A stretch of DNA of 64,000 bases from a virus (lineage: Duplodnaviria; Heunggongvirae; Uroviricota; Caudoviricetes): IMG/VR virus record IMGVR_UViG_3300021168_000019, positions 26,672-90,671 of that record. The stretch is one strand, 5' to 3'. This document shows positions 8,938 through 62,886 of the stretch, one piece after another; the first letter of the stretch is position 1, and each line of letters starts with the position of its first letter. The notes under the pieces were generated by a model that had not been told where the DNA came from, searched no databases, and saw nothing but the letters and a program-made list of their open reading frames with translations. The translations under genes were made by a program, and so were the position numbers.

Positions 8938-9597
8938 CTATTCACCTAAACTACTACCTGCGTTTCTGAATGCCTGTAGTGTTGAATTGTATCTGGCAAA
9001 AGCTTTGCCTTGACCGGGCCTTCCAAATACTTCGTTTGCTTTTTCCTCAGTCAGAATTCCTTTAAGAATGATCTGAAGCAAACATGTACGCCACCCTCTG
9101 CGACGTTCTGCTAGAGGCGCACCGTACTGGTCAAAGTTCATAATGGACAGTTCCGGCATTTGTCCGTATTGCGCCCAACATGCTATTTCCGGCTCGGCTA
9201 CACCAAGTTTTGTATACAATAGTGTAACTTTATCCGCATGTGGATGTTGTCTATAATGGCAGGATACTCCGGCCTGTCTAAGTTTAGTAATAAACTCAGC
9301 ATGTGACATTACCTTGCCGATTCTAGCTTCCACATCGGCATAGTCACCGGGTTGGAGCCATTGATACTGACTGGCGATGCCTTCATTGATTTCTTGGTTC
9401 TCAGCTAGTAGTTCTTTAGTCTGGGAACTTACAGGCGCGTCTTGATGTCTCTTGTTAGCGTAATCCGCGATCTGCGCGGCCAGTTCAGGGGTTACCTGAC
9501 GGCCAACTAGTTCCTTTTCATAAGACTCCCAAGGGGCAGTTTCGCTTAAACGCGTTCCCTGTGCCGCTTGTATTTCCTGCATTGTAGGCTGTGTCAT
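8938..9597 (-). CDS. hypothetical protein
   Basis: 219 aa ORF, RBS-like sequence upstream, no recognised motif. Confidence 0.35.
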   Translation of the reverse strand: MTQPTMQEIQAAQGTRLSETAPWESYEKELVGRQVTPELAAQIADYANKRHQDAPVSSQTKELLAENQEINEGIASQYQWLQPGDYADVEARIGKVMSHAEFITKLRQAGVSCHYRQHPHADKVTLLYTKLGVAEPEIACWAQYGQMPELSIMNFDQYGAPLAERRRGWRTCLLQIILKGILTEEKANEVFGRPGQGKAFARYNSTLQAFRNAGSSLGE

Positions 9598-13590: not shown

Positions 13591-14535
13591 TTAACCTCTC
13601 GGCTTTCTGGCTTCAGTTTCCAACTTCTCTACCTTCTTACCAAATTCACGGTCAGTAAGCAGACGGCGCTTGTACTCTTCTCCCGGCATGGCATTAATTG
13701 CTGCCAGTCCAGTTAGCACTCTCTTCTGTCCACCAACGGTAAGTTCATAAGTTATATCGCTTCCTGTTTTCACTAGTACACCGGAGTCAGATGCTTCTTC
13801 CCTAGTTAGGCCAGTGGGAATGCGAACTACCGGAACTACCGGAACAGGTTCAACCACAACGGGTTCTACCGGAACAACTACAGGTTCTACGGGAGCAACC
13901 GGCTCAGGCGGCAACGCTGCACCTTCAATAAGGATACCTTGCGCCTTAAGCGTATCGTATGCCTTTTGGAAGTTATCCTTGACAGGAGCAAGATTGTAGC
14001 GTACAATCCAACTAGCCAATGCTTCAAAGTTCTCTTGACACTTGTAATAGTCAGGATTCTCCGCGACGAATGCATTAGCTTCTACCTTGGCTCTTAGACT
14101 AATGTTGTCCTGCTGAATGGTCTGCATCGTTCTGCCGATTTGTGACAGCGGTGCGCCAAGCTGCGCTTCTACTAGAGCGGAAGCCGCTTCAGCAGAAGTT
14201 GTAGGATCGAGTAGTCTACGCGAAATATCGTACCGCTCGTCCTGTGTAAGTTCACGAGGATTGAATTCCAGAGGATCACTAAAGCGCTGTGCATTCTCGG
14301 GAACTACTTCATCCTCACCAATACCAAGACGGCCTTTCTTTGTCTCCTGACGTAGCTTACGAATTAGAAGTGTATTCTGCGTGCGTAGCTTGTCCACTAG
14401 CTCATCTTGAGTAGTGTACTTGATTACTTGTTTTCCACCAATAGGTCTGCCTTCTTCATCGGTAGGCTGATACGTATATGTCTTTTCGATTAGCTGTTCG
14501 CTCACGATTGTTTCCCTCCAGAAACATGAGGGCAA
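13591..14535 (-). CDS. scaffolding-like protein with Pro/Val repeat tract
   Basis: 314 aa; charged helical N-part; PVEPVVVPVEPVVVEPVPVVPVV encoded by tandem ~9-nt repeats 13822-13900; between portal and capsid. Confidence 0.4.
   Translation of the reverse strand: MPSCFWRETIVSEQLIEKTYTYQPTDEEGRPIGGKQVIKYTTQDELVDKLRTQNTLLIRKLRQETKKGRLGIGEDEVVPENAQRFSDPLEFNPRELTQDERYDISRRLLDPTTSAEAASALVEAQLGAPLSQIGRTMQTIQQDNISLRAKVEANAFVAENPDYYKCQENFEALASWIVRYNLAPVKDNFQKAYDTLKAQGILIEGAALPPEPVAPVEPVVVPVEPVVVEPVPVVPVVRIPTGLTREEASDSGVLVKTGSDITYELTVGGQKRVLTGLAAINAMPGEEYKRRLLTDREFGKKVEKLETEARKPRG
13822..13900. repeat. tandem short (9-18 nt) imperfect repeats inside scaffold-like gene
   Basis: ggaactaccggaactaccggaacagg...ggttctaccggaacaactacaggttctacggg periodicity. 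Confidence 0.6.
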
Positions 14536-20869: not shown

Positions 20870-20944
20870 TGGTATTCCCTTCAGGATTCGCACCTGAATC
20901 ACCGGTTTCGTAGACCGGAGTCCTATCTGTTGAACGAAAGGAAC
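20870..20944 (-). tRNA. tRNA-Arg(ACG)-like
   Basis: cloverleaf on minus strand: acceptor GTTCCTT/AGGGAAT (two G.U), D GTTC/GGAC, anticodon stem CCGGT/ACCGG loop CTACGAA, T-arm TCAGG-TGCGAAT-CCTGA, CCA encoded; T-loop has G at position 55 (atypical). Confidence 0.55.
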
Positions 20945-20945
20945 A

Positions 20946-21022
20946 TGGCTCCGCAGACAGGATTCGAACCTGTATCGTGGGCATTAACAGTGCCTCGTCT
21001 TGCCAAATTAGACGACCGCGAA
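20946..21022 (-). tRNA. tRNA-Asn(GTT)
   Basis: minus strand: acceptor TTCGCGG/CTGCGGA, D GTCT/AGAC, anticodon loop CTGTTAA, T-arm ACAGG-TTCGAAT-CCTGT, GCCA end. Confidence 0.8.
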
Positions 21023-24975: not shown

Positions 24976-25518
24976 ATGAATCAGAAACTTTGTATCAATT
25001 GTAATAAGATGAAGGATTTGGAAGACTTTGGAATTCGCCGGGCCGAGAAAGATGGACTTCATTACTATTGTAAGAAGTGCCATAAAGAGAAATCGGCTCA
25101 ATACCGTAAAGATAACCCAGATTCTACTAGACAATGTGTATCTAATTATCGCAAGCAGAATCCAGAAAAAGTAAAAGACTCACAACTTCGTACAAAATAC
25201 GGCATATCTCTTGACAAAAGAAACGAAATGATAGATAATCAAGGAGGTAAATGCCTCTTATGTGACGTTGAGTTCTCTGAAAAATGGGATGAGCGTCCGG
25301 GAGTAGACCACGACCATACTTGCTGTCCGGGATCGAGTACATGTGGTAAATGTATTAGAGGAATTCTTTGCCTTAGATGCAACGCTTGGTTAGGGAGATT
25401 TGAAGATAAGCCTGAGATGTTTATCAAGGCTTTGGACTATTTGAGGAATAATGATCATAGACGAAAGGGAATTGAAGCCGTTTGTAGCCAATCCGCCGAT
25501 GAATGTGTTGCGGATTAG
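24976..25518 (+). CDS. HNH homing endonuclease
   Basis: start MNQKL after AGG RBS; CKKCHKEK zinc module; VDHDHTCCPGSSTCGKCIRGILCLRCN. Confidence 0.65.
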   Translation: MNQKLCINCNKMKDLEDFGIRRAEKDGLHYYCKKCHKEKSAQYRKDNPDSTRQCVSNYRKQNPEKVKDSQLRTKYGISLDKRNEMIDNQGGKCLLCDVEFSEKWDERPGVDHDHTCCPGSSTCGKCIRGILCLRCNAWLGRFEDKPEMFIKALDYLRNNDHRRKGIEAVCSQSADECVAD

Positions 25519-28225
25519 TCAAGAATCTGAAGATAAATTACTATCTTTCTTAGATAACACATTTGATTTCGGATTTGACGTTGAAACTACCCCTGTTTCT
25601 GATTTTTATTGGAGACGACTTCGTACAATACAGTTTGGAAACTCAAAAGAACAGTATGTAATTGATCTTCTAGACTACTGTGACAGAGATAGCGAGTTAC
25701 TACATAATTGTCAAGGTGAGTACGGTAAACATCTCTGGAAAGCTCCAAAATTACAAGCACTTTTAGAAAAACTTAAAAAGTATTTGATTTCATCAGATTG
25801 GACCAAAACCGGCGTAAACGTTGGATTTGAGTACGAGTGTCTGTATTGGTTACTAGGGATACGTTCATCTGGTTACTACGATTGCATGTTAGCAGAAAAA
25901 TGCATATACGCAGGCATGGGAGGAAGTGCTTCATTAAAGAATTATGAATACTTTAGTATGTCCTCTATGTTCGAACGCTATTTTGGAATAACCATTGACA
26001 AAGCACTACAGACATCATTTAATTTAGATGACGATCTTTCTGATGCTCAATTCGAATACGCCGCACTTGATACGCGTACTCCATTGGCTATAAAGGCTGT
26101 TCAAAATCTTATAGCAAGTGGAGAGACTATTGAATCTCTAAAAGCCAAGGGAAAGCCGAAGCTGGCAGATTATCTATACTATTTGGACCGGATTATTCTA
26201 GGCGATAATCTTCATGAAGTCATTCAGATTGAAAACGAAGCACTCGGCGCTTTTATTGACATGCATGTGCACGGCGAACGTCTAGACCGTGAAAAGTGGC
26301 TTGCGCGTGTACAGAAGGCCAAGGATAAACTAGTAGCTGTTATTAAAGAGTTGGACAAGATTTTCCTCCCGTGGGTAGGTTCAAAGTTAGATGCCGTAGA
26401 CGATGACACGATTGCCGCACTTGAGATACAGTGGAAGTCGTTGCGTGATAATCCTACTGAGGCCGAGATTGAGCTAAAGCTTGCTATTTCACAGGCTAAC
26501 AGAGAGATTAAAAAGCTAATTAAACAGAACCTCGACATTGGAGAACTGCAACTTGCGCGTGCTGAAGCCGAAATTAAACTCAATCAGCTACAAGATGTAA
26601 GACTAGAGCAGAAAGAAATCATCAAGAAGAAGCATGGCGACCTGAGTAAAAAACGCACAAAGATTAGAAATCTTGCTGCCGACTGTGAAGGTGAAGCTCT
26701 TATTAACTATGGGTCAGATGCACAATTGATGCACTGTCTCAGAGAGAACATTAAGAAGCTTGAAAAGCTAGAAGGCATGGATGACGAGATTCTTGAGAAG
26801 TATGAATCTATTCCTGTCATGAAGCTTATCCGCGAGTACCACGGGTTATCGAAAGATGTGGGAACTTACGGCGATCAATGGGCGACTCAATGGACAACTC
26901 ACCCCTGTAAAGAGGAAGGATGGCTTCACCCCGGCGACGGTAGACTCCACTGCGAGTTCAACCAATATGATGCCGGTACTGGGCGAAGCAGTAGCTCTAA
27001 GCCAAATGCACAAAACCTTCCCCAAGATAAGGAAGTGCGTGGATCGTTCATTGCGGACCCGCCGAACGAGGACATTCGGATTAGTGATTGTTGCGAGGCT
27101 GATACGTATGAAGACGAATGGAACGGTGTAACTTACAATCTTATTTGCTCCAAATGTGAAAAACAATGTACTACACACGCTGAAGAATACGTACTCGTTA
27201 CGGCTGATATGTCCGGTGCCGAGTTGCGTATCATTGCCGATGACGCGAACGATGAGGTATGGATCGGTGCTTTCCGCAGAGGCGAAGACGTTCACTCAGT
27301 AGGAACAGAACTTTTGTACGATGAGAAGTGGCACAAGGCTCAGTATAAAGGACAGGAGTTAAAGAACAAGAAGGGAGAATTAGTACCATATTGGTGCGAG
27401 TATTATAAGCTTCATACTGAGGAAACCGTCAAGAAGAATCCATTGTGCACGGTTGGTGAACCAATGCGCCGAAAGTGCGAGTGTCCTGAGCATAAGCAGA
27501 TGCGTGATAATAACAAGGCCACTAACTTCCTATTGGCGTATGGTGGAGGGCCGGGTGCTCTTGCCGCCGCTATCAAACAGGCTCAGAAGATTGCTAAAGA
27601 ATTAATGGCGCTTCATGAGCATAAGAATCCTCGAATCTGGGCTTATCTGGAGAAATCTGGAAAAGATGCAGCGAGGGACTTCAGGGCATTTGATTTATTC
27701 GGCAGACGTAGATTGTTACCTGAGCCGACAAACGCCCGTGCAAGAGATAACTGCAAGGAGTGGAACGAAAAGCAGCTTAGACTTACTCCTGAAGATGCTG
27801 AGAAGAATGTTGCCATCTTTACGCAAGTGAAGGGCCGCAAGCCTACTCAAAGTGAGATGTTCGATTTAACTCACAGACAGCCTACTCAGGATGAGGTTAG
27901 CCGTAGTTACTTCCAAATGACAAGTCGTGTTTCTCGTCAAGGAAAGAATACGCGCATTCAGGCAACTAATGCAAGTATTGCTAAGAAAGCGATGGGATGC
28001 GGGTATTGTCCCAATGGAAAGCTGTTCTTGTGGCACACACTTCCACTCTACCGCGCGAAGCTAATTAAGTTCGTGCATGACGAATTGGTCGTACAATGTC
28101 CTAAGCAGCATGGTGAGAAGGTAGCCGCTCTCATTGGTGATGCTTTTAAGAGAGCAGCGGCTATTAAGATGAAACGTGTCGTGATGGAATTCGATTATTC
28201 AATCGCAAGTTATTGGAAGAAATAA
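25451..28225 (+). CDS. family A DNA polymerase with 3'-5' exonuclease domain
   Basis: 924 aa; ExoI FDVETT, ExoIII YAALDT, motif A DMSGAELR, motif B RDNNKATNFLLAYGG, motif C VHDELVVQ. Confidence 0.85.
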   Translation: MIIDERELKPFVANPPMNVLRISQESEDKLLSFLDNTFDFGFDVETTPVSDFYWRRLRTIQFGNSKEQYVIDLLDYCDRDSELLHNCQGEYGKHLWKAPKLQALLEKLKKYLISSDWTKTGVNVGFEYECLYWLLGIRSSGYYDCMLAEKCIYAGMGGSASLKNYEYFSMSSMFERYFGITIDKALQTSFNLDDDLSDAQFEYAALDTRTPLAIKAVQNLIASGETIESLKAKGKPKLADYLYYLDRIILGDNLHEVIQIENEALGAFIDMHVHGERLDREKWLARVQKAKDKLVAVIKELDKIFLPWVGSKLDAVDDDTIAALEIQWKSLRDNPTEAEIELKLAISQANREIKKLIKQNLDIGELQLARAEAEIKLNQLQDVRLEQKEIIKKKHGDLSKKRTKIRNLAADCEGEALINYGSDAQLMHCLRENIKKLEKLEGMDDEILEKYESIPVMKLIREYHGLSKDVGTYGDQWATQWTTHPCKEEGWLHPGDGRLHCEFNQYDAGTGRSSSSKPNAQNLPQDKEVRGSFIADPPNEDIRISDCCEADTYEDEWNGVTYNLICSKCEKQCTTHAEEYVLVTADMSGAELRIIADDANDEVWIGAFRRGEDVHSVGTELLYDEKWHKAQYKGQELKNKKGELVPYWCEYYKLHTEETVKKNPLCTVGEPMRRKCECPEHKQMRDNNKATNFLLAYGGGPGALAAAIKQAQKIAKELMALHEHKNPRIWAYLEKSGKDAARDFRAFDLFGRRRLLPEPTNARARDNCKEWNEKQLRLTPEDAEKNVAIFTQVKGRKPTQSEMFDLTHRQPTQDEVSRSYFQMTSRVSRQGKNTRIQATNASIAKKAMGCGYCPNGKLFLWHTLPLYRAKLIKFVHDELVVQCPKQHGEKVAALIGDAFKRAAAIKMKRVVMEFDYSIASYWKK

Positions 28226-29103: not shown

Positions 29104-29340
29104 ATGGCAGGATTTTTTAGTAACCTATTGGGCGCGGCTAAGGCCGATGGTTCCGCGTTCGTAAAGCTAGCAGAAGCCGATTCTTCAGAGCTAGAAGCGA
29201 AGGGCCGGATCGTTGCGCTTGATGCGGCACATTCAGTAAAGACTGAAGTGGTAGACTTTCTCGAAAAGGAAGTTGACCGCGTTCACGCAACTGCTGATGC
29301 ACTTAACGCACGTTTTAAGTCAGTTCTGGGAAAGCTTTAA
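29104..29340 (+). CDS. hypothetical small protein
   Basis: start at internal Met after GAGGAG RBS (29092-29097). Confidence 0.35.
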   Translation: MAGFFSNLLGAAKADGSAFVKLAEADSSELEAKGRIVALDAAHSVKTEVVDFLEKEVDRVHATADALNARFKSVLGKL

Positions 29341-29406
29341 CAAGTACGCACGTATGAAGCGCAGCCGCGCTATCGGACGCGGGTTCGATTCCCGCCATCT
29401 CCACCA
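29341..29406 (+). ncRNA. ssrA: tmRNA (ssrA) acceptor piece of a circularly permuted two-piece tmRNA
   Basis: GGACGCGGGTTCGATTCCCGCCATCTCCACCA 29375-29406 matches canonical tmRNA 3' end (T-arm plus acceptor 3' strand plus CCA); partner 5' strand GGGGATG lies 92 nt downstream. Confidence 0.8.
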
Positions 29407-29497
29407 ATTTTTGTATCAAGCGGTTAGCCGTATGTAAGAACTAAATACGGACTAATGAAGGTAGAGTTGGTTCTTCTGTAGACTCTGCTCTAAAAAT

Positions 29498-29800
29498 GGG
29501 GATGCCAAGGTTTCGACGGTAGATGTTGAATGTTGTTAGCAGACGTGCAGGTAGACGACTAACCTTAACAGCGTAACCTAATAAATGGCGCAACCATTTA
29601 TGACGAGATGATTAACGGACTTCAGGTGGCAACATCTGAGCGCGTTAGTGGCCTCGTGATGGCCTAGTAATAGGACCGGGGTCTGACCCACCTAGCAACA
29701 GAAAGGGTCATAAGACTGAGGCAGAGGGAATACTATCAAACCCAGTATGAGTCGCTACCCTTCAATGGGTGGGACGAGCAAGAGTACGAAACTCGGTAGT
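29498..29800 (+). ncRNA. ssrA: tmRNA coding piece (5' acceptor strand GGGGATG, D-analog TTCGACGG, tag ORF, pseudoknots); 3' boundary approximate
   Basis: GGGGATGCCAAGGTTTCGACGG 29498-29519 resembles canonical tmRNA 5' end; GGGGATG pairs with CATCTCC (one G.U); candidate tag frames end in TAATAA or TAGTAATAG stop clusters; ~470 nt without any ORF. Confidence 0.65.
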
Positions 29801-29866
29801 TGACTGTGTTAAGAGGCAGGGGAATTTCTGTCAATACGATCAGAAAACCTAGAAATTTGAGGCAAC

Positions 29867-30253
29867 ATGGCAAAGCCGTTTATTCACGCGATGTCGTCAG
29901 TTCGCAAATGGGGAGGAGTTCCAGAGGATTATCTTCCTGTTCATGATCTACTGGACTCCTCCAAGGGGCAGATTGCAGATAGCCGCCATCGAGCATTGAC
30001 GCATAATGCATGGTTCCTATCGACAATTCTTGAAAAGGTATTTGGTCACAACATTACTAACAGCGATGGGCGGCTCGTATCAGTACGTGATATTGGTGAG
30101 CAGCATGTTCTAGAAGACTTCGGCGGCAGATATATTCCATCTGCCCAAGATTATCTTCAAGAAATTGAAATAAAGGATTGGATGGTAAAAGGCGCAGGCG
30201 CACCGCCATCTTTCGCAAAACTTGTGCCGAAAACAGTGAGGAGAGAAATATGA
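29867..30253 (+). CDS. hypothetical protein
   Basis: 128 aa; TGAGG RBS. Confidence 0.4.
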   Translation: MAKPFIHAMSSVRKWGGVPEDYLPVHDLLDSSKGQIADSRHRALTHNAWFLSTILEKVFGHNITNSDGRLVSVRDIGEQHVLEDFGGRYIPSAQDYLQEIEIKDWMVKGAGAPPSFAKLVPKTVRREI

Positions 30254-30761: not shown

Positions 30762-30838
30762 GTGTCGGTAGCATAAATGGCAATGCGCAGGACTGTGACT
30801 CCTTGCATGATGTTGGTTCGAATCCAACCCTTCACTCC
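30762..30838 (+). tRNA. tRNA-His(GTG)-like, possibly degenerate
   Basis: D GCAT/ATGC, anticodon stem CAGGA/TCCTG loop CTGTGAC, T-arm GTTGG-TTCGAAT-CCAAC, CCA; acceptor GTGTCGG/CCTTCAC has two adjacent mismatches. Confidence 0.4.
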
Positions 30839-30924
30839 ATGTCAGACTGGAAAAACAACTGAGGCAAAGAACCTGTTCAGCGGATAACAGAGCCAAGGTA
30901 GTCCGGTCAGTCCGCATAACTTTT

Positions 30925-31012
30925 CGGTGTGTAAAACGGTAGCAGGGAGCCGTCCCGCTTTGGAAGCGGGAGCTTAAGAGCACTGCAAGTTCGAATCTTG
31001 CCACGCCGACCA
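30925..31012 (+). tRNA. atypical type-II-like tRNA (anticodon loop TTTGGAA, reads as UGG)
   Basis: acceptor CGGTGTG/CACGCCG (7 bp with G.U), canonical T-arm GCAAG-TTCGAAT-CTTGC, ACCA end, anticodon stem CCCGC/GCGGG, extra variable hairpin; irregular D-region. Confidence 0.35.
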
Positions 31013-31026
31013 TTTTTAGGAGAAGT

Positions 31027-31209
31027 ATGCCGATATATACGTACCAATGCCCCCGATGCGGGGAGACAGTTGACAAACTCCGCAAGATGAGCGATACTAA
31101 TCCTGTACATTGCACTTGCACGGATACTGAAGATTCAGCGTTCGCCGTGGAGATGCAACAAGTGCCAGCCGTGCCGTCGCCTATGCAATGGGGCTGCAAG
31201 AGGTTCTAA
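31027..31209 (+). CDS. FmdB-like zinc-ribbon protein
   Basis: 60 aa; MPIYTYQCPRCG...HCTC; AGGAGAAG RBS. Confidence 0.5.
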   Translation: MPIYTYQCPRCGETVDKLRKMSDTNPVHCTCTDTEDSAFAVEMQQVPAVPSPMQWGCKRF

Positions 31210-31481
31210 TGGATAATGCATTTGCTAATACATTTGCCGTCGAAACCTTTATCGGCATGAACGATCATCCGTCGATTACGTTTCACTTCGACACGATGAA
31301 CTTCCATGACCCGGATACTAAGTGGTTCTTGGACGAACTGTACTTTGATGGATGCAGAGTGGACTGTGTTCCGATGTCGTTCTATCAGGACATTATCGAT
31401 TTCTGCCAGCACAAGATAAAACAGATTCCACATTTTGACGCAGTAGACGGTGAATTAGAGTGGAATGATGGAAATGGATGA
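31209..31481 (+). CDS. hypothetical protein
   Basis: TAATG overlap with upstream gene. Confidence 0.35.
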   Translation: MDNAFANTFAVETFIGMNDHPSITFHFDTMNFHDPDTKWFLDELYFDGCRVDCVPMSFYQDIIDFCQHKIKQIPHFDAVDGELEWNDGNG

Positions 31482-31580
31482 ACCCCTGATGGCGAAAGCC
31501 GTGTTATCGAAAGATAGCTTGTTGCCGAAAGGCTAGACCGACAAGGGCATCCAAACAACATGATCTAAGGGGTTAGGATC

Positions 31581-32435
31581 ATGCGAAAGGAAGATATGAA
31601 AAGTGTAATGAAGGCGATTGCTGCGGCAATCATAGCAGTTGGACTTATGTCAACAGTTGGATGTACTGTAGCGTCCCCTGATGCTGGTCATCAAGCGGTA
31701 TGGGTGGAAAAGCCAATGCTATTTGGGCATGGCGGAGTTGACCAAACTCCCGTTTCAGCAGGACAAGAATACGGAGCATTTACTAGCAATGCCATTGATG
31801 TAACTATGCAGCCACAACGCATCGACATGGAATTTGATGACATGATGACTAAATCAGGAGTACCTGTTAGTTTTCACGTATTGTTTGTGTTCCGAGTAAC
31901 GGATGCTGTCAGACTCGTTCAAGGATATGGCGTAGATGAAAAGACTGGCGAAGCAAAGGGCGCATGGAATCGTGTAATGGATTCGCAGATTAATCAACTT
32001 GTGCGCGACTCTGTGAAGGCGTATGATATGCAGGATATCGCTATCAGTCAGTCAGCAGTGGATGCTGTGTCAAAGCAAATCAGTACAGGTTCATTTAACA
32101 TTGCCAAGTCTACTGGACTCCCAATCGAATTGCTTTCAGTCAACGTGGGACGTATCCTTCCACCTGATGCTATTAAGCACCAACGTATTGAGACGGCAGC
32201 ACAAGAGCAGCGTGTAATCACCGAGCAGCAGAAGAAGCTTGCTGAAGATGCACGTAAGGCAGCAGAGGAAAGCCGCGCAGCAGCAGACAAGGCTTACCTT
32301 GAAAAGATGCAACTTTCTCCTCAGCAGTACGTTGAGTTGGAACGTATCAAGATGCTGGATAACATTTGCGGAAAGTCAGCATGTACATTCATCCAAGGCA
32401 CGGGAGCGGTTCCTACTCTGGATGTGAAGAAGTAA
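31581..32435 (+). CDS. SPFH/band-7 domain lipoprotein
   Basis: 284 aa; signal peptide with lipobox LMSTVGC; SPFH-like core followed by Ala/Glu-rich coiled coil. Confidence 0.45.
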   Translation: MRKEDMKSVMKAIAAAIIAVGLMSTVGCTVASPDAGHQAVWVEKPMLFGHGGVDQTPVSAGQEYGAFTSNAIDVTMQPQRIDMEFDDMMTKSGVPVSFHVLFVFRVTDAVRLVQGYGVDEKTGEAKGAWNRVMDSQINQLVRDSVKAYDMQDIAISQSAVDAVSKQISTGSFNIAKSTGLPIELLSVNVGRILPPDAIKHQRIETAAQEQRVITEQQKKLAEDARKAAEESRAAADKAYLEKMQLSPQQYVELERIKMLDNICGKSACTFIQGTGAVPTLDVKK

Positions 32436-32615
32436 ATTGCCGGGGCGCATAGTGTGCTAGGAAGTCTCATAAGCTTTCCCTAACTAGGTGCGATACCTAG
32501 CTTCGGCACCAAGGCACAGATACTCTGTTTCAACCGAGGAGTAACTGGTATCCCTATCGGTTGGCACTTCCGAAAGGACGGTAGTACCAACCGGAAAAGG
32601 TACAGGGGCGAACTT

Positions 32616-32690
32616 GCCGGGTTAGCTCAATGGTAGAGCAACTCTTTTACACGGAGAAGGCTACAGGTTCGAGTCCTGTACGCGGCACCA
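32616..32690 (+). tRNA. tRNA-Val(TAC)
   Basis: acceptor GCCGGGT/ACGCGGC (one G.G mismatch), D GCTC-AATGGTA-GAGC, anticodon loop TTTACAC, T-arm ACAGG-TTCGAGT-CCTGT, CCA. Confidence 0.7.
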
Positions 32691-32865
32691 AGCTGTGAAA
32701 TGTTTCACTTGCTTTTAGTAGCACATTGTCAACTAGTAAAAAGCAGGGGTTTGATAACTTCCGTAAAATGTTATCGCGTCGTGGCGCAAACACGCAACTT
32801 ACCGTTAAAAAGCAAACGGGTGACTTTTTGGCCCCAGTTTTCAATAGTAAAACGGGGACTATTTT

Positions 32866-32953
32866 GGGTGTATGGCTGAGAGGCTAAAAGCACCTGACTG
32901 TAAATCAGGCCCTCTTCGGAGGTACGGTAGTTCAAATCTATCTGCACCCACCA
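32866..32953 (+). tRNA. tRNA-Tyr(GTA), type II
   Basis: acceptor GGGTGTA/TGCACCC, anticodon stem CCTGA/TCAGG loop CTGTAAA, long variable arm CCCTCTTCGGAGG, T-arm GGTAG-TTCAAAT-CTATC, ACCA. Confidence 0.75.
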
Positions 32954-32969
32954 AACTTTTAAAGGAACA

Positions 32970-33425
32970 ATGACAATTAAACCCGGACAAATAGCGGCAA
33001 CAAAGAAAAAATCAGAACAACTTAGAATGTCATTTTGTAAAGCTTCTGCTAAGTTGAGAAATAAGTTGTTCTTTTCTATGCTACAGCAATTGAATCGGGA
33101 TATATGTTACAGGTGTGGCACTAGAATACTCAATGAAGACGACTTTAGTGTAGATCATAAGGAACCGTGGTTAGACGCTAGTGCAACTCTGTTCTGGGAT
33201 TTAGACAACATCGCTTTTTCACATCGAAGTTGCAACAGCGCTGCTAGTAGAGTTCCACATAAGATAATCTGCCCAGTTGGTAAAAATTGGTGTAATGTAT
33301 GCAAAGATTTTTTAGATAGTGATAATTTTGGAAACAACAGAACTACATTATCTGGCAAGCAGAGGTACTGCAAAAGTTGTAGAAAGAAGCGTAAAATATC
33401 ATTGTCGTGTATCTCAATTGGATAG
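32970..33425 (+). CDS. HNH endonuclease
   Basis: 151 aa; DFSVDHKEPW...FSHRSCNSAAS, inside tRNA cluster. Confidence 0.6.
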   Translation: MTIKPGQIAATKKKSEQLRMSFCKASAKLRNKLFFSMLQQLNRDICYRCGTRILNEDDFSVDHKEPWLDASATLFWDLDNIAFSHRSCNSAASRVPHKIICPVGKNWCNVCKDFLDSDNFGNNRTTLSGKQRYCKSCRKKRKISLSCISIG

Positions 33426-33487
33426 AGGACTTTCCTTATAAGAGAGCGGTTAGATGTTCGATGCATCTCACGACAGCCAAAGTTTTA

Positions 33488-33575
33488 CCCCGGATGACGT
33501 AATTTAGAAGCCGTAGTGGTCTTAGAAGCCACTGTCCGTAAGGGCGTGGGGGTGCAAGTCCCTCTCCGGGGACCA
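33488..33575 (+). tRNA. tRNA-Leu(TAG)-like, atypical
   Basis: perfect acceptor CCCCGGA/TCCGGGG, anticodon stem GTGGT/GCCAC loop CTTAGAA, long variable arm; D-loop lacks GG and T-loop is TGCAAGT (G at 55). Confidence 0.5.
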
Positions 33576-33577
33576 AT

Positions 33578-33664
33578 GCCGTTATGGTGGAATTGGCAGA
33601 CACAGCGGACTTAAAATCCGCCGCCCGTAAGGGCATGGGGGTTCAAGTCCCTCTCGCGGCACCA
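33578..33664 (+). tRNA. tRNA-Leu(TAA), type II
   Basis: D GTG-GAATTGGCAGA-CAC, anticodon stem GCGGA/TCCGC loop CTTAAAA, variable arm CGCCCGTAAGGGCAT, T-arm GGGGG-TTCAAGT-CCCTC; 3 nt after preceding tRNA. Confidence 0.75.
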
Positions 33665-33800
33665 AGTTAGGGATGCGCCCATCGTAAGGGCATGGAAATG
33701 CTGGCGGCTAAAAGAGGGTCCGATTCCCCTGTTTCTGTTACGAGCATCCCTATTGACAAACAGACCCTACAGTGGTAGTATAGCTGTAGGGTTTTATTTT

Positions 33801-33891
33801 GGAAGGTTGACAGAGCGGTAATGTGCCTGTTTGCTAAACAGAGGCTATCCTGAAAGGGATACGTAGGTTCGATTCTCTACACCTTCCGCCA
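33801..33891 (+). tRNA. tRNA-Ser(GCT), type II
   Basis: perfect acceptor GGAAGGT/ACCTTCC, D ACA-GAGCGGTAA-TGT, anticodon loop TTGCTAA, variable arm TATCC-TGAAA-GGATA; T-loop appears 8 nt (TTCGATTC). Confidence 0.6.
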
Positions 33892-33906
33892 ATTTGAAAG
33901 GAAGCT

Positions 33907-34137
33907 ATGAAAGACTTGTGCAAAGAGTGTACCTGTGACTCACATCATATTAAACTCTTTTTAGTATTTTGCTTTGACTTGACAGATAATCGTGTAGAGT
34001 TAGTTGCTATTTGTCGCACAAGTGAATTGGCAGAGAAATACAAAACAGGTTACAAAAAACTAACAACTCGCACTTGGATAGAAGAACGTTTGACAGACCA
34101 CGCTCTAGGTGCGATTATGTTAGGTAAGAAGTTTTAG
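33907..34137 (+). CDS. hypothetical small protein
   Basis: 76 aa between Ser tRNAs. Confidence 0.3.
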   Translation: MKDLCKECTCDSHHIKLFLVFCFDLTDNRVELVAICRTSELAEKYKTGYKKLTTRTWIEERLTDHALGAIMLGKKF

Positions 34138-34231
34138 GGTGAGTGGCAGAGTGGTTGAATGCACCGGTCTTGAAAACCGGAGAGCCGGTTAAGACCCGGC
34201 TCCGTGGGTTCGAATCCTACCTCACCCGCCA
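34137..34231 (+). tRNA. tRNA-Ser(TGA), type II
   Basis: perfect acceptor GGGTGAG/CTCACCC, anticodon stem CCGGT/ACCGG loop CTTGAAA, long variable arm, T-arm GTGGG-TTCGAAT-CCTAC, GCCA. Confidence 0.8.
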
Positions 34232-48770: not shown

Positions 48771-48846
48771 GCATACGTGGTATAATGGTCATTATCTCTG
48801 CCTCTTAAGCAGAAGGATGTTCGTTCAAATCGAGCCGTATGCACCA
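48771..48846 (+). tRNA. tRNA-Lys(CTT)
   Basis: perfect acceptor GCATACG/CGTATGC, anticodon stem TCTGC/GCAGA loop CTCTTAA, T-arm GTTCG-TTCAAAT-CGAGC, ACCA. Confidence 0.75.
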
Positions 48847-48847
48847 T

Positions 48848-48923
48848 GCACGTTTCGTATAGTGGCTATTATACCGGGCTTTTAACCCGATTGACGTTGG
48901 TTCGAATCCAGCAACGTGCACCA
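48848..48923 (+). tRNA. tRNA-Lys(TTT)-like
   Basis: acceptor GCACGTT/AACGTGC, D GTAT/ATAC, anticodon loop CTTTTAA, T-arm GTTGG-TTCGAAT-CCAGC, ACCA; D/anticodon junction 1 nt short. Confidence 0.6.
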
Positions 48924-48933
48924 AAGGAGAATT

Positions 48934-49164
48934 ATGAAATACCTTATTGCAGGATTAGCGCTTGTTTTGGGAATAATCGTATTAGTTGTAGTCATTGGAC
49001 TACTTCTAGCATTCCCCGTGATGTGGCTTGTAAACTTTCTGTTTGCACCTAGCGCGTTGCTTGTAGTCTTTGGCACTGTCAAGCTTGGCTTTTGGCAGGC
49101 ATACGGGTTGTTGGTACTTGCAGGATTGTTGTTCAAAAGTTCCAGCACAACTGGTAGCAAGTAA
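48934..49164 (+). CDS. small membrane protein (2 TM)
   Basis: start MKYLIAG after AAAGGAGAA; hydrophobic helices. Confidence 0.4.
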   Translation: MKYLIAGLALVLGIIVLVVVIGLLLAFPVMWLVNFLFAPSALLVVFGTVKLGFWQAYGLLVLAGLLFKSSSTTGSK

Positions 49165-49173
49165 CCCCCTATC

Positions 49174-49250
49174 CCCCGGTTAGCTCAACCGGCTAGAGCG
49201 TTCGCTTGATAAGCGAGAGGTTGGTGGTTCAAACCCATCACTGGGGACCA
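49174..49250 (+). tRNA. tRNA-Ile(GAT)
   Basis: acceptor CCCCGGT/ACTGGGG, D GCTC-AACCGGCTA-GAGC, anticodon stem TTCGC/GCGAG loop TTGATAA, T-arm GGTGG-TTCAAAC-CCATC, ACCA. Confidence 0.75.
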
Positions 49251-55198: not shown

Positions 55199-55572
55199 TG
55201 CACACACTACTGCTTGGACTCGTACTGGCTATCGGCATGGGGGATAAGGTTCCCCCGGCACCAACCGTCACTGTTGTACCCACCACCTTTTCTACTGCAT
55301 ACTTTGAAGAAGTTGACAAGGCCAACACAATCTTCGATAAGTATATGAAAACTAGTTGCAGGGATGCCGGTTACGCCGAGGTTGACAGCGCCATGAAAAA
55401 CGAGTATTATACTCTTAAGGGCATGGCAAAGACGATTCAGACGAACGAGCCGGATGAAATTAAGCAGGACCATGAGTTTGAAACGTTTGTGGGATTGCAG
55501 GTTCTTCTGAAGTCCTCAGTTGATGACCATCAAAAGTGTGAAGCAGAACTGGAACATAGTCCTACTACATAG
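55195..55572 (+). CDS. hypothetical protein with N-terminal hydrophobic segment
   Basis: 125 aa. Confidence 0.3.
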   Translation: MMHTLLLGLVLAIGMGDKVPPAPTVTVVPTTFSTAYFEEVDKANTIFDKYMKTSCRDAGYAEVDSAMKNEYYTLKGMAKTIQTNEPDEIKQDHEFETFVGLQVLLKSSVDDHQKCEAELEHSPTT

Positions 55573-55580
55573 GAGATACG

Positions 55581-56597
55581 ATGAAATTGTCAGAGTACAT
55601 CGATACCGCGAAGTTACAGCGACATGTTAGCAATGGGCTAGTAACTGCTCGTAGGCACAATACCCTCCCCCTGACTATTTACTGCTACGGCAAGACGGCA
55701 GTCTTTAATCGCGTTTGGGATGATGTGACTACTAAGACTCGTGGATTAATTGTCGATGACTCTGGCGAAATCATTGCCCGTCCTTATGAGAAGTTCTTTT
55801 CTATCGACCAACTGCCGACTCTTGTAGATGTACATGAGATTGATACTCAGTTTGGACCGCCAGTTATCACCGAGAAGGTTAACGGATGTCTTGGAATCTT
55901 CTGGAAGTATGGAATCCATTGGGGCATTGCATCCAAAGGTTCGTTCCATTCACCGCACGCAGAGTTTGCTACGAAGTGGATGGAGCAGCATATTGAAGAG
56001 CATGGGCCGCTTGTATTTCCTGAAGGTTACACGCCAGTCTTTGAAATAGTTTGCCAAGAAGTACAGCCTCATGTTATCAAGTACGCGAAAGATGGCTTAG
56101 TTCTGCTGTCGTTTGTGAAGGTTGAAACTGGCGAAGAGGGTGACCGGGCTGAGGTTGTAAACTACTACGGTAATCTTAACAGTTTGGACAGAGCTTTTAG
56201 CTTTAATGGTACGCTAGACGAAGCTTTGAGTATGGACCGTGAGCATTATGAGGGACTGGTTGCAACGTATAACATCCCCGGACAGGCACCGTTCAAGTTG
56301 AAGATTAAGTTTCCTACATTCCTTAAGAACCGCAAGGCATTCTACGAGGAGCAGCGTTTGAAGGGCAATGACGGCGGCAAGGAAGCGTACAACCGCATTC
56401 ATAGTAAGGCCGCTGAGATAGTCAAGGAAGCACTGATAGTCTGTACCGAGCAAAAGGAATTCGCAATGTTCTTTCAGAAGCCGGAGAACGTATTCTATGC
56501 GCCAGCCTGCTTCGCTATGTTGAACTACGACGAAGACAAAGAGCGCCAGAAGAGAGCAATCTGGCGACTGGTCGATAAGGAGAAGAATGCCAGTTAA
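55581..56597 (+). CDS. Rnl1-family (T4 RNA ligase 1-like) RNA ligase
   Basis: TRGLIVDDSGEIIARPYEKFFSIDQ matches Rnl1 RGIMFE..GE.PVRIASRPMEKFFNLNE from memory; motif I ITEKVNG (KxNG). Confidence 0.55.
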   Translation: MKLSEYIDTAKLQRHVSNGLVTARRHNTLPLTIYCYGKTAVFNRVWDDVTTKTRGLIVDDSGEIIARPYEKFFSIDQLPTLVDVHEIDTQFGPPVITEKVNGCLGIFWKYGIHWGIASKGSFHSPHAEFATKWMEQHIEEHGPLVFPEGYTPVFEIVCQEVQPHVIKYAKDGLVLLSFVKVETGEEGDRAEVVNYYGNLNSLDRAFSFNGTLDEALSMDREHYEGLVATYNIPGQAPFKLKIKFPTFLKNRKAFYEEQRLKGNDGGKEAYNRIHSKAAEIVKEALIVCTEQKEFAMFFQKPENVFYAPACFAMLNYDEDKERQKRAIWRLVDKEKNAS

Positions 56598-61437: not shown

Positions 61438-61691
61438 TGAGCCTATTTGATAAACCACAATCGCTACCTCAGTTTATGGACCCAAAGAATAGCCGTAGCT
61501 ATGAGACTTTGCTCAGTTTTGTTACCTATTGTGAGCAGAATCCCGAGCAAAGGTTCTGGCAGGCATTGCGGAACTGGAGTGGATATCACTACATTCTTAC
61601 CAGTGATGTTCCATTGTACAAAGTCAACAATGAGACTCCACTACGAGATACATTTTATTTGGAAGGAAAAAGGCATGACGAAGAAAGCTAA
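61437..61691 (+). CDS. hypothetical small protein
   Basis: 84 aa. Confidence 0.3.
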   Translation: MSLFDKPQSLPQFMDPKNSRSYETLLSFVTYCEQNPEQRFWQALRNWSGYHYILTSDVPLYKVNNETPLRDTFYLEGKRHDEES

Positions 61692-62886
61692 CCATCAAGT
61701 GAATATAGTTCGTATCACCGAGATTAAGGAACATACTAACGCTGATACGTTGGTTATTATTCCTATCGGCGGCTATCAGGTTGTGTCCAAGAAAGGCCAA
61801 TTCAACATCGGTGACCTTGGCGTTTACCTTCAGCCTGACAGTGTTGTTCCTCAGACGGAGCCTTTCAAGTTCATTTGGGGTCCGTACTATGAAAGCTTGC
61901 TAGCCAATCCAGATTACGAGCAATTCAACAGTCCAGTAATTGTACCAGAGAAAAGACGTAGAATTACTGTCCGTAAGTTTCGTAAGGAATGGTCAGAGGG
62001 CTTGTTATTACCTATTAGTGACTTTACATTGAATGAACTTATCATTGACCCTCATGGAAAGTGTGCACCGTTCCTGCCCAAAGAAGGTGATGATGTATCG
62101 GACATTCTTGGTATTACCCATTATGACCCGGATACGGAGAGCACGAGGGGTGAGAACTCTGCGGCTCCTCGTAAGGCAAAACGCTATCCCCGTTCGTTCC
62201 ACGGATGGGTCAAGTTTATTTGGCGCAGAGTCAAGCAAGTATTCGGTCTGGGAGCAGTCACGGACGGCGTAGCTGACAACGTAGGGCTAGGAATTCCTAC
62301 CTACGATGTGGACGCACTGAAGAACTATCCCGACACGTTTGAAGAGGGTGAGCAGGTAATTGTCACTGAGAAGATTCACGGCAGTAACGCCCGGTTTATT
62401 TTCCTTGACGGCGTGATGTATGCGGGCTCACGTAACCTCTGGAAAGCACCCGGTTCGACTTGCATTTTCCGCCGTGCTGTGAGAGAATTGCCTTGGATTG
62501 AAGAATGGTGCAGAGCGCATGAGGGTCACGTTCTCTGGGGCGAGGTAACTCCCACCCAAGGCGGATTCGAATACGGTAGCAAGAACGTACAGTTCTTTGT
62601 ATTCGATGTTCGTGACCCTAACGGGAATTGGCTAGACGAGTCTACGCCCGAGGGTTTGGAGATTCTGACCCATCTTCAGGATAGGACTGTTCCCGTGTTG
62701 TATAAGGGACCTTTCAACCTACAAGTTATTAAGCAGTTGTTAGTTGACGGACCCTCTACTATTAAAAATGCTAAGAACATTCGTGAAGGTGTGGTTGTCA
62801 AAACTGCAACAGAGCGCGGTAGAAATAGCAGACGCGCACAGATGAAAATCGTATCGAATGCGTATTTGGAGAAGGAGACGAAGTGA
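61676..62886 (+). CDS. Rnl2-like RNA ligase fused to N-terminal tRNA-binding OB-fold domain
   Basis: start MTKKANHQ after AAGGAAAAAGG; N-terminus VNIVRITEIKEHTNADTLVII..GGYQVVSKKGQFNIGDLGVYLQPDSVVP resembles Myf/EMAP-type tRNA-binding domains; motif I VTEKIHGSN matches Rnl2 KIHG. Confidence 0.5.

Follow-up and report, generated by a model that had tools for sequence, protein, structure and literature searches.

A permuted tmRNA gene downstream of the phage DNA polymerase

The window examined here, a stretch of 64,000 nucleotides (nt) from a virus of the Caudoviricetes (IMG/VR record IMGVR_UViG_3300021168_000019, positions 26,672–90,671), contains a 526-nt gap between open reading frames (ORFs; 29341–29866) downstream of a DNA polymerase gene (25451–28225). 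This gap holds a gene for transfer-messenger RNA (tmRNA, ssrA) in circularly permuted, two-piece form. ARAGORN calls a permuted tmRNA at 29314–29758 with the tag peptide GATIYDEMINGLQVATSERVSGLVMA, whose end, ...GLVMA, is followed by three stop codons. A search of the whole window against all 4227 Rfam families returned RF04321 (tmRNA_permuted) at 74 bits (E = 2.5e-12), and a search of the sub-region alone gave 78 bits, against a gathering threshold (GA) of 47 bits. The RF04321 alignment begins at 29344 and shows the gene order of that family: a 3' half comprising the 3' strands of helix P2, the T arm and CCA, then an intervening sequence, then a 5' half comprising the acceptor 5' strand, the P2 5' strands, pseudoknot 1 (PK1) and the tag. 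The order of 3' half, spacer and 5' half is kept in every homologue that we found. Short ORFs at 29273–29437 (+), 29441–29593 (−) and 29736–29873 (−) overlap the gene; these cannot be conserved, because the length of the intervening sequence varies among relatives.

A preliminary description of the locus, made from the letters of the window, had proposed a phage-encoded, circularly permuted ssrA from its T arm, the strand CATCTCC, the ACCA end and the strand GGGGATG. All of these elements can be read directly at the positions it gave; GGGGATG and CATCTCC are fully complementary, with G3 opposite U, and a spacer of 91 nt (29407–29497) separates the two halves. The RF04321 and ARAGORN matches bear the proposal out, as does covariation across 21 homologues of the acceptor, T-arm and helix-2 pairings that join the two pieces. 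The tmRNA pattern is beyond chance and the gene is real. It is an addition to the two-piece tmRNAs already documented in phages, and standard annotation tools detect it.

Homologous loci and covariation

About 60 related loci were gathered from viral and metagenome collections, anchored on the DNA polymerase, and are designated here by L numbers where they must be told apart. They were screened with Rfam, ARAGORN and a detector of our own, which looks for TCC-ACCA at the end of an acceptor 3' strand and, within 300 nt, for a 5' strand that begins GGG and is complementary to it throughout; the detector and Rfam were used because ARAGORN alone missed most homologues. This yielded 22 distinct permuted tmRNAs at the same site downstream of the polymerase, 21 of which were analysed, and a copy located elsewhere in the phage Tunturi_4 brings the total to about 23. 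Scanning the viral collection with a motif running from PK1 to the resume codon recovered only contigs already collected.

The 21 genes were aligned and folded after excision of the intervening sequence. Their consensus comprises 26 pairs in five helices: the acceptor and T stems, plus three segments of P2, the helix that joins the two pieces. In this tRNA-like domain 95.6% of 543 cells pair, compared with 72% in column shuffles and 33–42% with slid partners; changes on both sides occur in 21 of the 26 pairs, and none of 500 shuffles reaches the observed value in any of five measures. At a mean column identity of 50%, the homologues are not copies of a single sequence duplicated by assembly. 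The T stem is paired in all 21 sequences and all five of its pairs covary, while the three P2 segments are 86–98% paired, with compensatory changes in 13 of 14 pairs. The T stem, P2, PK1 and pseudoknot 2 (PK2) were not selected for by the detector. The pairs G1-C, G2-C and G3:U and the encoded CCA are invariant (21/21 genes).

These data bear on the possibility that the locus is a decaying relic, either an ssrA fragment acquired through imprecise excision or an attP-type copy, serving integration, of the 3' end of a host tmRNA. Fragments of ssrA 3' ends are frequent in temperate elements, many blastn matches to the T arm are of this kind, and both the window and its cultured relative Tunturi_3 encode an integrase-like protein. 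Yet the gene has both its halves, every helix is kept by compensatory change in 21 lineages, and the acceptor 3' strand varies jointly with a partner 10–154 nt downstream, which an attachment site has no need of. The tag ORF is moreover under purifying selection (see below), and no integrated relative was found among 185,579 species-representative genomes. The covariation effectively refutes this explanation.

Seven genes (L004, L005, L073, L085, L102, L061 and L067) carry a non-canonical T loop, TAGCATA in five of them and GGCGGCA or GGCAGAA in the others. All seven are without GG in the D-loop analogue, which reads AGATTCGAC or CAGTTTCGAC, whereas all 15 genes with a TTCGAnn loop retain it, a pattern that looks like co-variation of a tRNA-type tertiary contact.

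Two cultured phages of Tunturiibacter are among the carriers. In Tunturi_3 (L007, PP885686) the tmRNA scores 63 bits at 9213–9500, corresponding to about 88100–88400 of the record. It is unannotated in GenBank and is not mentioned in the paper describing the phage, because only tRNAscan-SE was used there (PMC11924767). Tunturi_4 (L109, PP885687), a siphovirus of another Tunturiibacter species, has an unannotated permuted tmRNA at 871 to about 1330 (RF04321, 79 bits), with an intervening sequence of 154 nt and a 33-residue tag ending YAVAA.

One further contig, L033 (IMGVR_UViG_3300050134_000028), was obtained through a chance pattern match. On its minus strand near 922 it has another permuted-tmRNA-like pair, CAGGTCC-ACCA followed 81 nt downstream by GGGCCTGTCCCGGTTTCGA. 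A tRNA-like 3' end with encoded CCA is common to L017, L018, L032 and L033.

Architecture of the two pieces

All elements of the window gene lie on the plus strand. The acceptor piece (29343–29406, about 64 nt) comprises the 3' strands of P2, the T arm, the acceptor 3' strand and the encoded CCA; its extent follows the RF04321 alignment, with a 5' limit placed by comparison with relatives. Its P2 strands GCACG (29348–29352), GC (29359–29360) and GCT/ATCG (29369–29375) have their partners in the coding piece at 29544–29548, 29539–29540 and 29517–29523, respectively. The T arm (29379–29395) consists of a 5-bp stem, GCGGG with CCCGC, closed by the loop TTCGATT, and is identical to that of tmRNAs from Stenotrophomonas phages. 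The acceptor 3' strand CATCTCC (29396–29402) is followed by the discriminator A and CCA (ACCA, 29403–29406), and in the 7-bp acceptor stem that it forms with GGGGATG, G29500 and U29400 make up the G3:U70 pair.

The intervening sequence (29407–29497), which tRNA-type 3' and 5' processing would remove, is 91 nt long in the window and 10–154 nt among homologues. It folds as two hairpins (z = −1.95), and the first bases after CCA (AWTTWTGTA-like) are kept in many relatives. A probe for this trailer, GTCCACCAAGWTTWGTA, matched 42 stretches of the viral collection, nearly all of them chance or tRNA matches, and recovered only the contigs of L004 and L005.

The coding piece runs from 29498, the start of the acceptor stem and a candidate RNase P-type site, to about 29721, an approximate end that gives a predicted length of about 215–225 nt. 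Alignment and covariation place the acceptor 5' strand GGGGATG at 29498–29504, the D-loop analogue CCAAGGTTTCGA at 29505–29516 and the 5' strand of P2a at 29517–29523. The distal P2 strand (29539–29548) comprises GC (29539–29540) and CGTGC (29544–29548), whose central pair changes between C-G, U-A and A-U.

PK1 follows directly (29549–29574). Its stem 1 (S1) pairs AGGTAG (29549–29554) with CTA(A)CCT (29559–29565), and its stem 2 (S2) pairs ACG (29555–29557) with CGT (29572–29574). In the eight genes that have the window's layout, including that of the Stenotrophomonas phage Marzo, 95.8% of PK1 cells are paired and none of 500 shuffles reaches the covariation score; the three-pair S2 occurs as ACG/CGU, CCG/CGG, GCG/CGC and CUG/CAG. 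Beyond the tag frame, the sequence CCTA GTAA TAGG (29663–29674) can be read as a helix-5-like hairpin enclosing the stop codons, and stop-codon hairpins of other sequence, counted by eye, occur in L004 (CCTAA GAAA TTAGG) and L006 (CTAACC GAAG GGTTAG).

The H-type pseudoknot PK2 (29679–29710), identified by covariation, pairs GGGT (29679–29682) with ACCT (29690–29693) in S1 and TGACCC (29684–29689) with GGGTCA (29705–29710) in S2, and its loop 3 carries a conserved AACAGAA. Seven different S2 sequences occur among relatives, always with complementarity kept, and the S2 helix is 6 bp or longer in 13 of the 15 genes, compared with 14% for shuffled controls.

The outer ends of the mature RNAs are bounded to about 29343–29406 and 29498–29720 because tRNA genes abut them in relatives. 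A tRNA gene ends right before the acceptor piece, at a homologous AGTA..., in L006 (tRNA at 13775–13846) and in Marzo (tRNA-Leu), and a tRNA gene starts 9–11 nt past PK2 in L004, L006 and L051. These bounds are tighter than the limits of ARAGORN, whose 3' limit is 29758. Inspection by eye for a helix between the 3' tail of the coding piece and the 5' tail of the acceptor piece showed nothing consistent.

About 145 nt of non-coding spacer (29722–29866) separate the tmRNA from the next gene, whereas in most relatives the next gene or tRNA follows within about 10–25 nt. The first 20 nt of this spacer (ATAAGAYTGARGCAGAGGG) are common to L003 only, and the spacer matches no Rfam family and folds unremarkably (z = −0.5).

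Tag frame and tag peptide

The tag frame called by ARAGORN occupies 29587–29673, running from GGC to GCC over 26 codons and ending in TAG TAA TAG. Homologous tags are present in L075 (ANSTYDKMVAGLLAETSDVQSTELVMA), L003 (GKSVYDKMVAALSVETQEVASELVMA), L005 (ATSIYDKMIAAIPVSKDGVVRSNDLVLA) and L051 (AETSIYDKMIAGVSTSVEVNSNDLVLA). Directly upstream, the alignment of the 21 homologues shows a single-stranded, A-rich resume context, AACCTAATAAAT (29575–29586), in which U occupies position −5 and A position −4, the positions that reportedly set the frame in E. coli tmRNA. In most of the 21 genes a context ...AAYAAMU leads directly into the predicted resume codon (AAUAAAU|GGC in the window), with L006 and L007 departing from it. 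Within the conserved tag blocks, the codon changes between L005 and L051 number five, all of them synonymous, so that selection acts on the tag peptide itself. Homology in position and in peptide, together with these synonymous-only changes, supports a predicted tag of (Ala)-GATIYDEMINGLQVATSERVSGLVMA followed by TAG TAA TAG.

The preliminary description had regarded the tag as not obvious and had offered two kinds of candidate. The frames ending ...GLVMA agree with the ARAGORN call and with tag homology; the short frame ADVQVDD (29539–29562) is ruled out, since it occupies the 3' strand of P2 and PK1. The tag peptides had no match among the ORFs of the window.

The same features speak to a second alternative, in which the RNA, lacking a tag, would block host trans-translation as a decoy. 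Phage precedent exists in the tmRNA of mycobacteriophage DS6A, which has no coding sequence (PMC11915505). The window gene, by contrast, possesses a full mRNA-like domain, with PK1, a resume context, an open frame of 26 codons, a stop-codon hairpin and PK2, and conservation of the frame extends to its peptide, so that we regard a decoy as very improbable.

Tags in the clade are 12–39 residues long, mostly 25–37, with 26 in the window, whereas the modal tag length in the tmRNA database is 10 residues (PMC11915505) and a review gives a range of 8–35 (PMC8012679). Two members of the same polymerase-anchored clade, L073 and L078, have short, canonical-looking tags (ANEETLAMEAAA and ANTNVLAMSAAAGA), and long tags are thus frequent in the lineage, not obligatory. 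The C-termini are nonpolar and variable: LVMA, LVLA, YMLA, MLAA, LLAA, LVAA, VAVA, YASA, VEVA, VNVS and FVKV. The LVMA end of the window tag is nonpolar with a terminal Ala, the penultimate Ala being replaced by Met; among relatives the last residues range from LAA, VAA and MAA to VKV and NVS.

This unusual length raises the question of whether a working tmRNA might have had its long, non-canonical tag repurposed, either for another protease or adaptor, for sparing the tagged products, or for out-competing the host tmRNA so that products meet a phage-controlled fate. The 26 residues of the window tag compared with the modal 10, the clade's lengths of mostly 25–39 set against the published range, and C-termini as varied as LVMA, LVLA, FVKV, LVNVS, VAVA, YASA and LAA would fit such a role, and the purifying selection on N-terminal blocks (xIYDKMIA) suggests recognition by something other than a C-terminal reader. 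Several clade members, on the other hand, end in canonical LAA, VAA or AAA, the tags of L073 and L078 are ordinary as well as short, the middle of the tag ranges from acidic to strongly basic, so that no single shared partner is implied, and nonpolar C-termini generally can still serve as degrons. We therefore view repurposing as possible but rather unlikely.

That the locus encodes a functional, phage-encoded two-piece tmRNA is, in our assessment, very likely; its anatomy, conservation, covariation and peptide-level tag selection are the directly supported part of this assignment. Some observations nevertheless count against it. While the tmRNA is common in the group of phages resembling Tunturi_3, it is not universal, and six distinct polymerase-anchored loci are without one within 4 kb. 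The 100% pairing of the acceptor stem arises partly by construction, since the detector demanded 7/7 pairs there. Neighbouring tRNA genes in relatives are all that bounds the acceptor piece at its 5' end and the coding piece at its 3' end. The hydrophobic LVMA end appears degron-like, yet it is not the canonical LAA. Finally, the tag frame of Tunturi_3 (...SRKVRVAQFATMLAA, homologous to the tags of L072 and L061) is shifted by +1 relative to the conserved resume context AUAGUx, and the frame set by that context would encode just NAGKQNRQQN before a stop.

Relationship to known permuted tmRNAs

The preliminary description, noting that permuted ssrA is known mainly from alphaproteobacteria and a few other lineages, had implied an alphaproteobacterial affinity. 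The alpha_tmRNA model (RF01849) scores 10 bits (E = 0.71) against a threshold of 50, and an alphaproteobacterial affinity and host are rejected on this score and on collinearity with the Acidobacteriota phage Tunturi_3. Nor is the permuted form as rare as was implied, as 53 of 133 unique tmRNAs in cultured phages have already been called two-piece (PMC9004378). The cyano_tmRNA model (RF01851) gives 8.5 bits against a threshold of 70, and only over the 5' acceptor and D-loop region. With beta_tmRNA (RF01850; GA 84) there is a local match of 10.5 bits to model positions 243–304, spanning the last part of the tag, then the hairpin with the stops, then PK2, which is also the order of the beta consensus; in the Rfam scan of the full region, any beta match ranked beneath a 50-bit partial match to RF00023.

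The closest known counterparts are the tmRNAs of Stenotrophomonas phages (the menderaviruses Marzo, Moby and Mendera, and DLP_6), of which those of Marzo and DLP_6 are bona fide beta type, with 95–104 bits against the threshold of 84. Their gene order is the same as that of the window, and the T arm and acceptor end are identical over 33–35 nt. When the window was compared at the nucleotide level with the cultured-phage collection, these 33–35-nt matches to Stenotrophomonas myophages were the only ones. The motif GTATGAAGC occurs in the acceptor pieces of both the window gene and these phage genes, and the PK1 layout GGTAGnCGACTnACCTnAnCAGCGnAA is common to the window and Marzo (75% identity over 83 nt, E = 3e-8), with joint covariation. 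The pseudoknot after the tag is likewise shared, aligning to positions 243–304 of the beta model. They differ in the tag, which has 26 residues ending LVMA in the window and 13–14 ending IAA in the Stenotrophomonas phages; the carrier phages, moreover, are unrelated to the window phage, whose probable host belongs to a different phylum. Because the window gene falls below the beta threshold yet has detectable homology to beta-type phage genes, its sequence is best described as that of a divergent relative of the beta-type permuted form, not a scoring member of it.

More distant parallels exist. The two-piece tmRNA of alphaproteobacteria, described in Caulobacter (Keiler, Shapiro and Williams 2000, via PMC11915505), follows the same principle of a permuted gene and two RNA pieces, but its model fits the window only at the score given above. 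Marine phages, including Melnitz, pelagimyophages and cyanophages, likewise carry permuted ssrA whose form need not match that of the host; Melnitz, which infects OM43, has an alpha-type gene although its host is of another class (Buchholz et al. 2022, PMC9004378). For these phages, too, the two-piece tmRNA is proposed to sustain translation during infection (PMC9004378). Their genes are of alpha or cyano type and sometimes accompanied by a glutamine riboswitch, whereas the window gene is beta-like and belongs to a soil phage lineage; Rfam scans of the window and of the tmRNA sub-region gave no riboswitch match.

In their length (about 25–30 residues) and non-LAA C-terminus, the Lon-recognised ssrA tags of Mollicutes resemble the window tag. 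This is an analogy alone, as the Mollicutes tmRNA is one-piece, bacterial and without sequence similarity to the window. The tags of Mycoplasma have reportedly switched to Lon, an instance in which the length and sequence of a tag go together with a different protease.

Genome context and host

Turning to the phage itself, the DNA polymerase upstream of the tmRNA shares 51% identity with its counterpart in Tunturi_3, a podovirus cultured on an Acidobacteriota host. The window and this podovirus are collinear over the structural and replication modules (major head protein 87%, portal 69% and terminase 54% identity), and the ORF ending at 29340 is a homologue of Tunturi_3 gp134, which itself lies just upstream of the Tunturi_3 tmRNA. 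On account of this gene-by-gene collinearity we assign the window to a Tunturi_3-like soil phage, which probably infects a member of the Acidobacteriota. A polymerase alignment scan of the 185,579 bacterial genomes mentioned above found neither an integrated relative nor one binned into a metagenome-assembled genome.

The preliminary description had also suggested that the host clade can be read from the permuted form. In the tmRNA database, 2144 genomes of Acidobacteriota hold 1589 standard tmRNA genes and five listed as 'permuted (beta)'; as the tmRNAs of this phylum are nearly all standard, the permuted form is not the host's, and beta-type permuted copies occur in Stenotrophomonas phages as well. 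The suggestion therefore fails for a phage collinear with Tunturi_3. The five exceptional entries may, we conjecture, be phage contigs binned into metagenome-assembled genomes.

The window encodes 13 tRNA genes in three clusters (20870–21022, 30762–34231 and 48771–49250). The main array (His, Val, Tyr, Ile, Leu, Leu, Ser, Ser) starts about 1 kb downstream of the tmRNA, which thus heads it, and in relatives tRNA-His lies directly 3' of the tmRNA. An HNH endonuclease ORF (32970–33425) splits the array, and an SPFH/Band 7 protein is encoded within the tRNA region (31581–32435). The gene just downstream of the tmRNA (29867–30253) encodes a DUF6915 protein (E = 2e-39). Pfam searches of the ORFs flanking the tmRNA returned only DUF6915, SPFH and HNH.

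Several genes related to RNA repair and ribosome rescue were identified in this group. ORFs 55560–56594 and 61441–62883 of the window are homologues of the Tunturi_3 RNA ligases gp74 (37% identity) and gp64 (46% identity), which suggests an RNA-repair capacity fitting a phage that faces RNA-cleaving host defences, and Tunturi_3 also encodes an RNA 2'-phosphotransferase. Both Tunturi_3 and Tunturi_4 encode an RF-1-domain (ArfB-like) protein. In Tunturi_4 this is gp53, annotated as 'RF-1 domain peptide chain release factor' (519–866), which ends 5 nt before the tmRNA; because it adjoins the tmRNA, two ribosome-rescue factors stand side by side in that genome. No ArfB-like ORF was found in the window, and a tblastn search with E. 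coli SmpB as query found no SmpB-like ORF there (best E = 1.4).

Proposed mechanism and significance

Ordinary trans-translation with a phage-supplied tmRNA is the best-supported account of this gene, and we infer processing, charging and SmpB dependence by analogy, taking the biochemical steps from established tmRNA biology (PMC8012679). A single precursor transcript would be cut by tRNA-processing enzymes into two RNAs, as the tRNA-type ends and the abutting tRNA genes of relatives suggest: an acceptor piece (about 29343–29406) ending at the encoded CCA, and a coding piece (29498 to about 29720) beginning at the RNase P-type site, with the 91-nt segment between them discarded. The pieces would anneal through the acceptor stem and P2 into a tRNA-like domain accepting alanine, whose 3' end the host alanyl-tRNA synthetase would presumably charge through G3:U70. 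Host SmpB and EF-Tu could then, in the infected cell, bring the RNA to ribosomes that have stalled because an mRNA is broken or lacks a stop codon. Translation would resume at GGC 29587, adding Ala and the 26-residue tag ending LVMA, and termination at TAG TAA TAG would free the ribosome. The likely benefit to the phage would be that translation capacity is kept up in an infected cell undergoing RNA cleavage. The tmRNA-headed tRNA array, the RNA ligases, the phosphotransferase and the ArfB-like proteins fit a phage that expects RNA damage.

A more ambitious proposal is that Tunturi-like soil phages have their own diverged two-piece tmRNA lineage with long, peptide-selected tags that are not simple ClpXP degrons, and that together with the ArfB-like factor and the RNA ligases it forms an anti-defence translation-rescue kit against anticodon nucleases and mRNA interferases. 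We offer this as a speculation with a low probability of being correct as a whole. If true, ribosomes would be kept running under host RNA cleavage, and tagged products would be sent to a fate chosen by the phage.

Two-piece tmRNAs of phages were known beforehand, and the basic picture is unchanged. What is new is modest: the unannotated tmRNAs of two cultured Acidobacteriota phages, Tunturi_3 and Tunturi_4, and a soil-phage lineage, probably infecting Acidobacteriota, whose beta-like gene has diverged, whose unusually long tags are conserved as peptides, and in which the tmRNA is linked to other rescue and repair genes. The beta-like permuted gene circulates among phages of Acidobacteriota and Xanthomonadales, hosts with one-piece tmRNAs, and offers a covariation-backed example showing that whether a phage tmRNA is permuted or standard does not reliably mark the host. 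The long conserved tags and the adjacent ArfB-like gene make these phages a tractable system for learning what a phage gains from ribosome-rescue machinery of its own.

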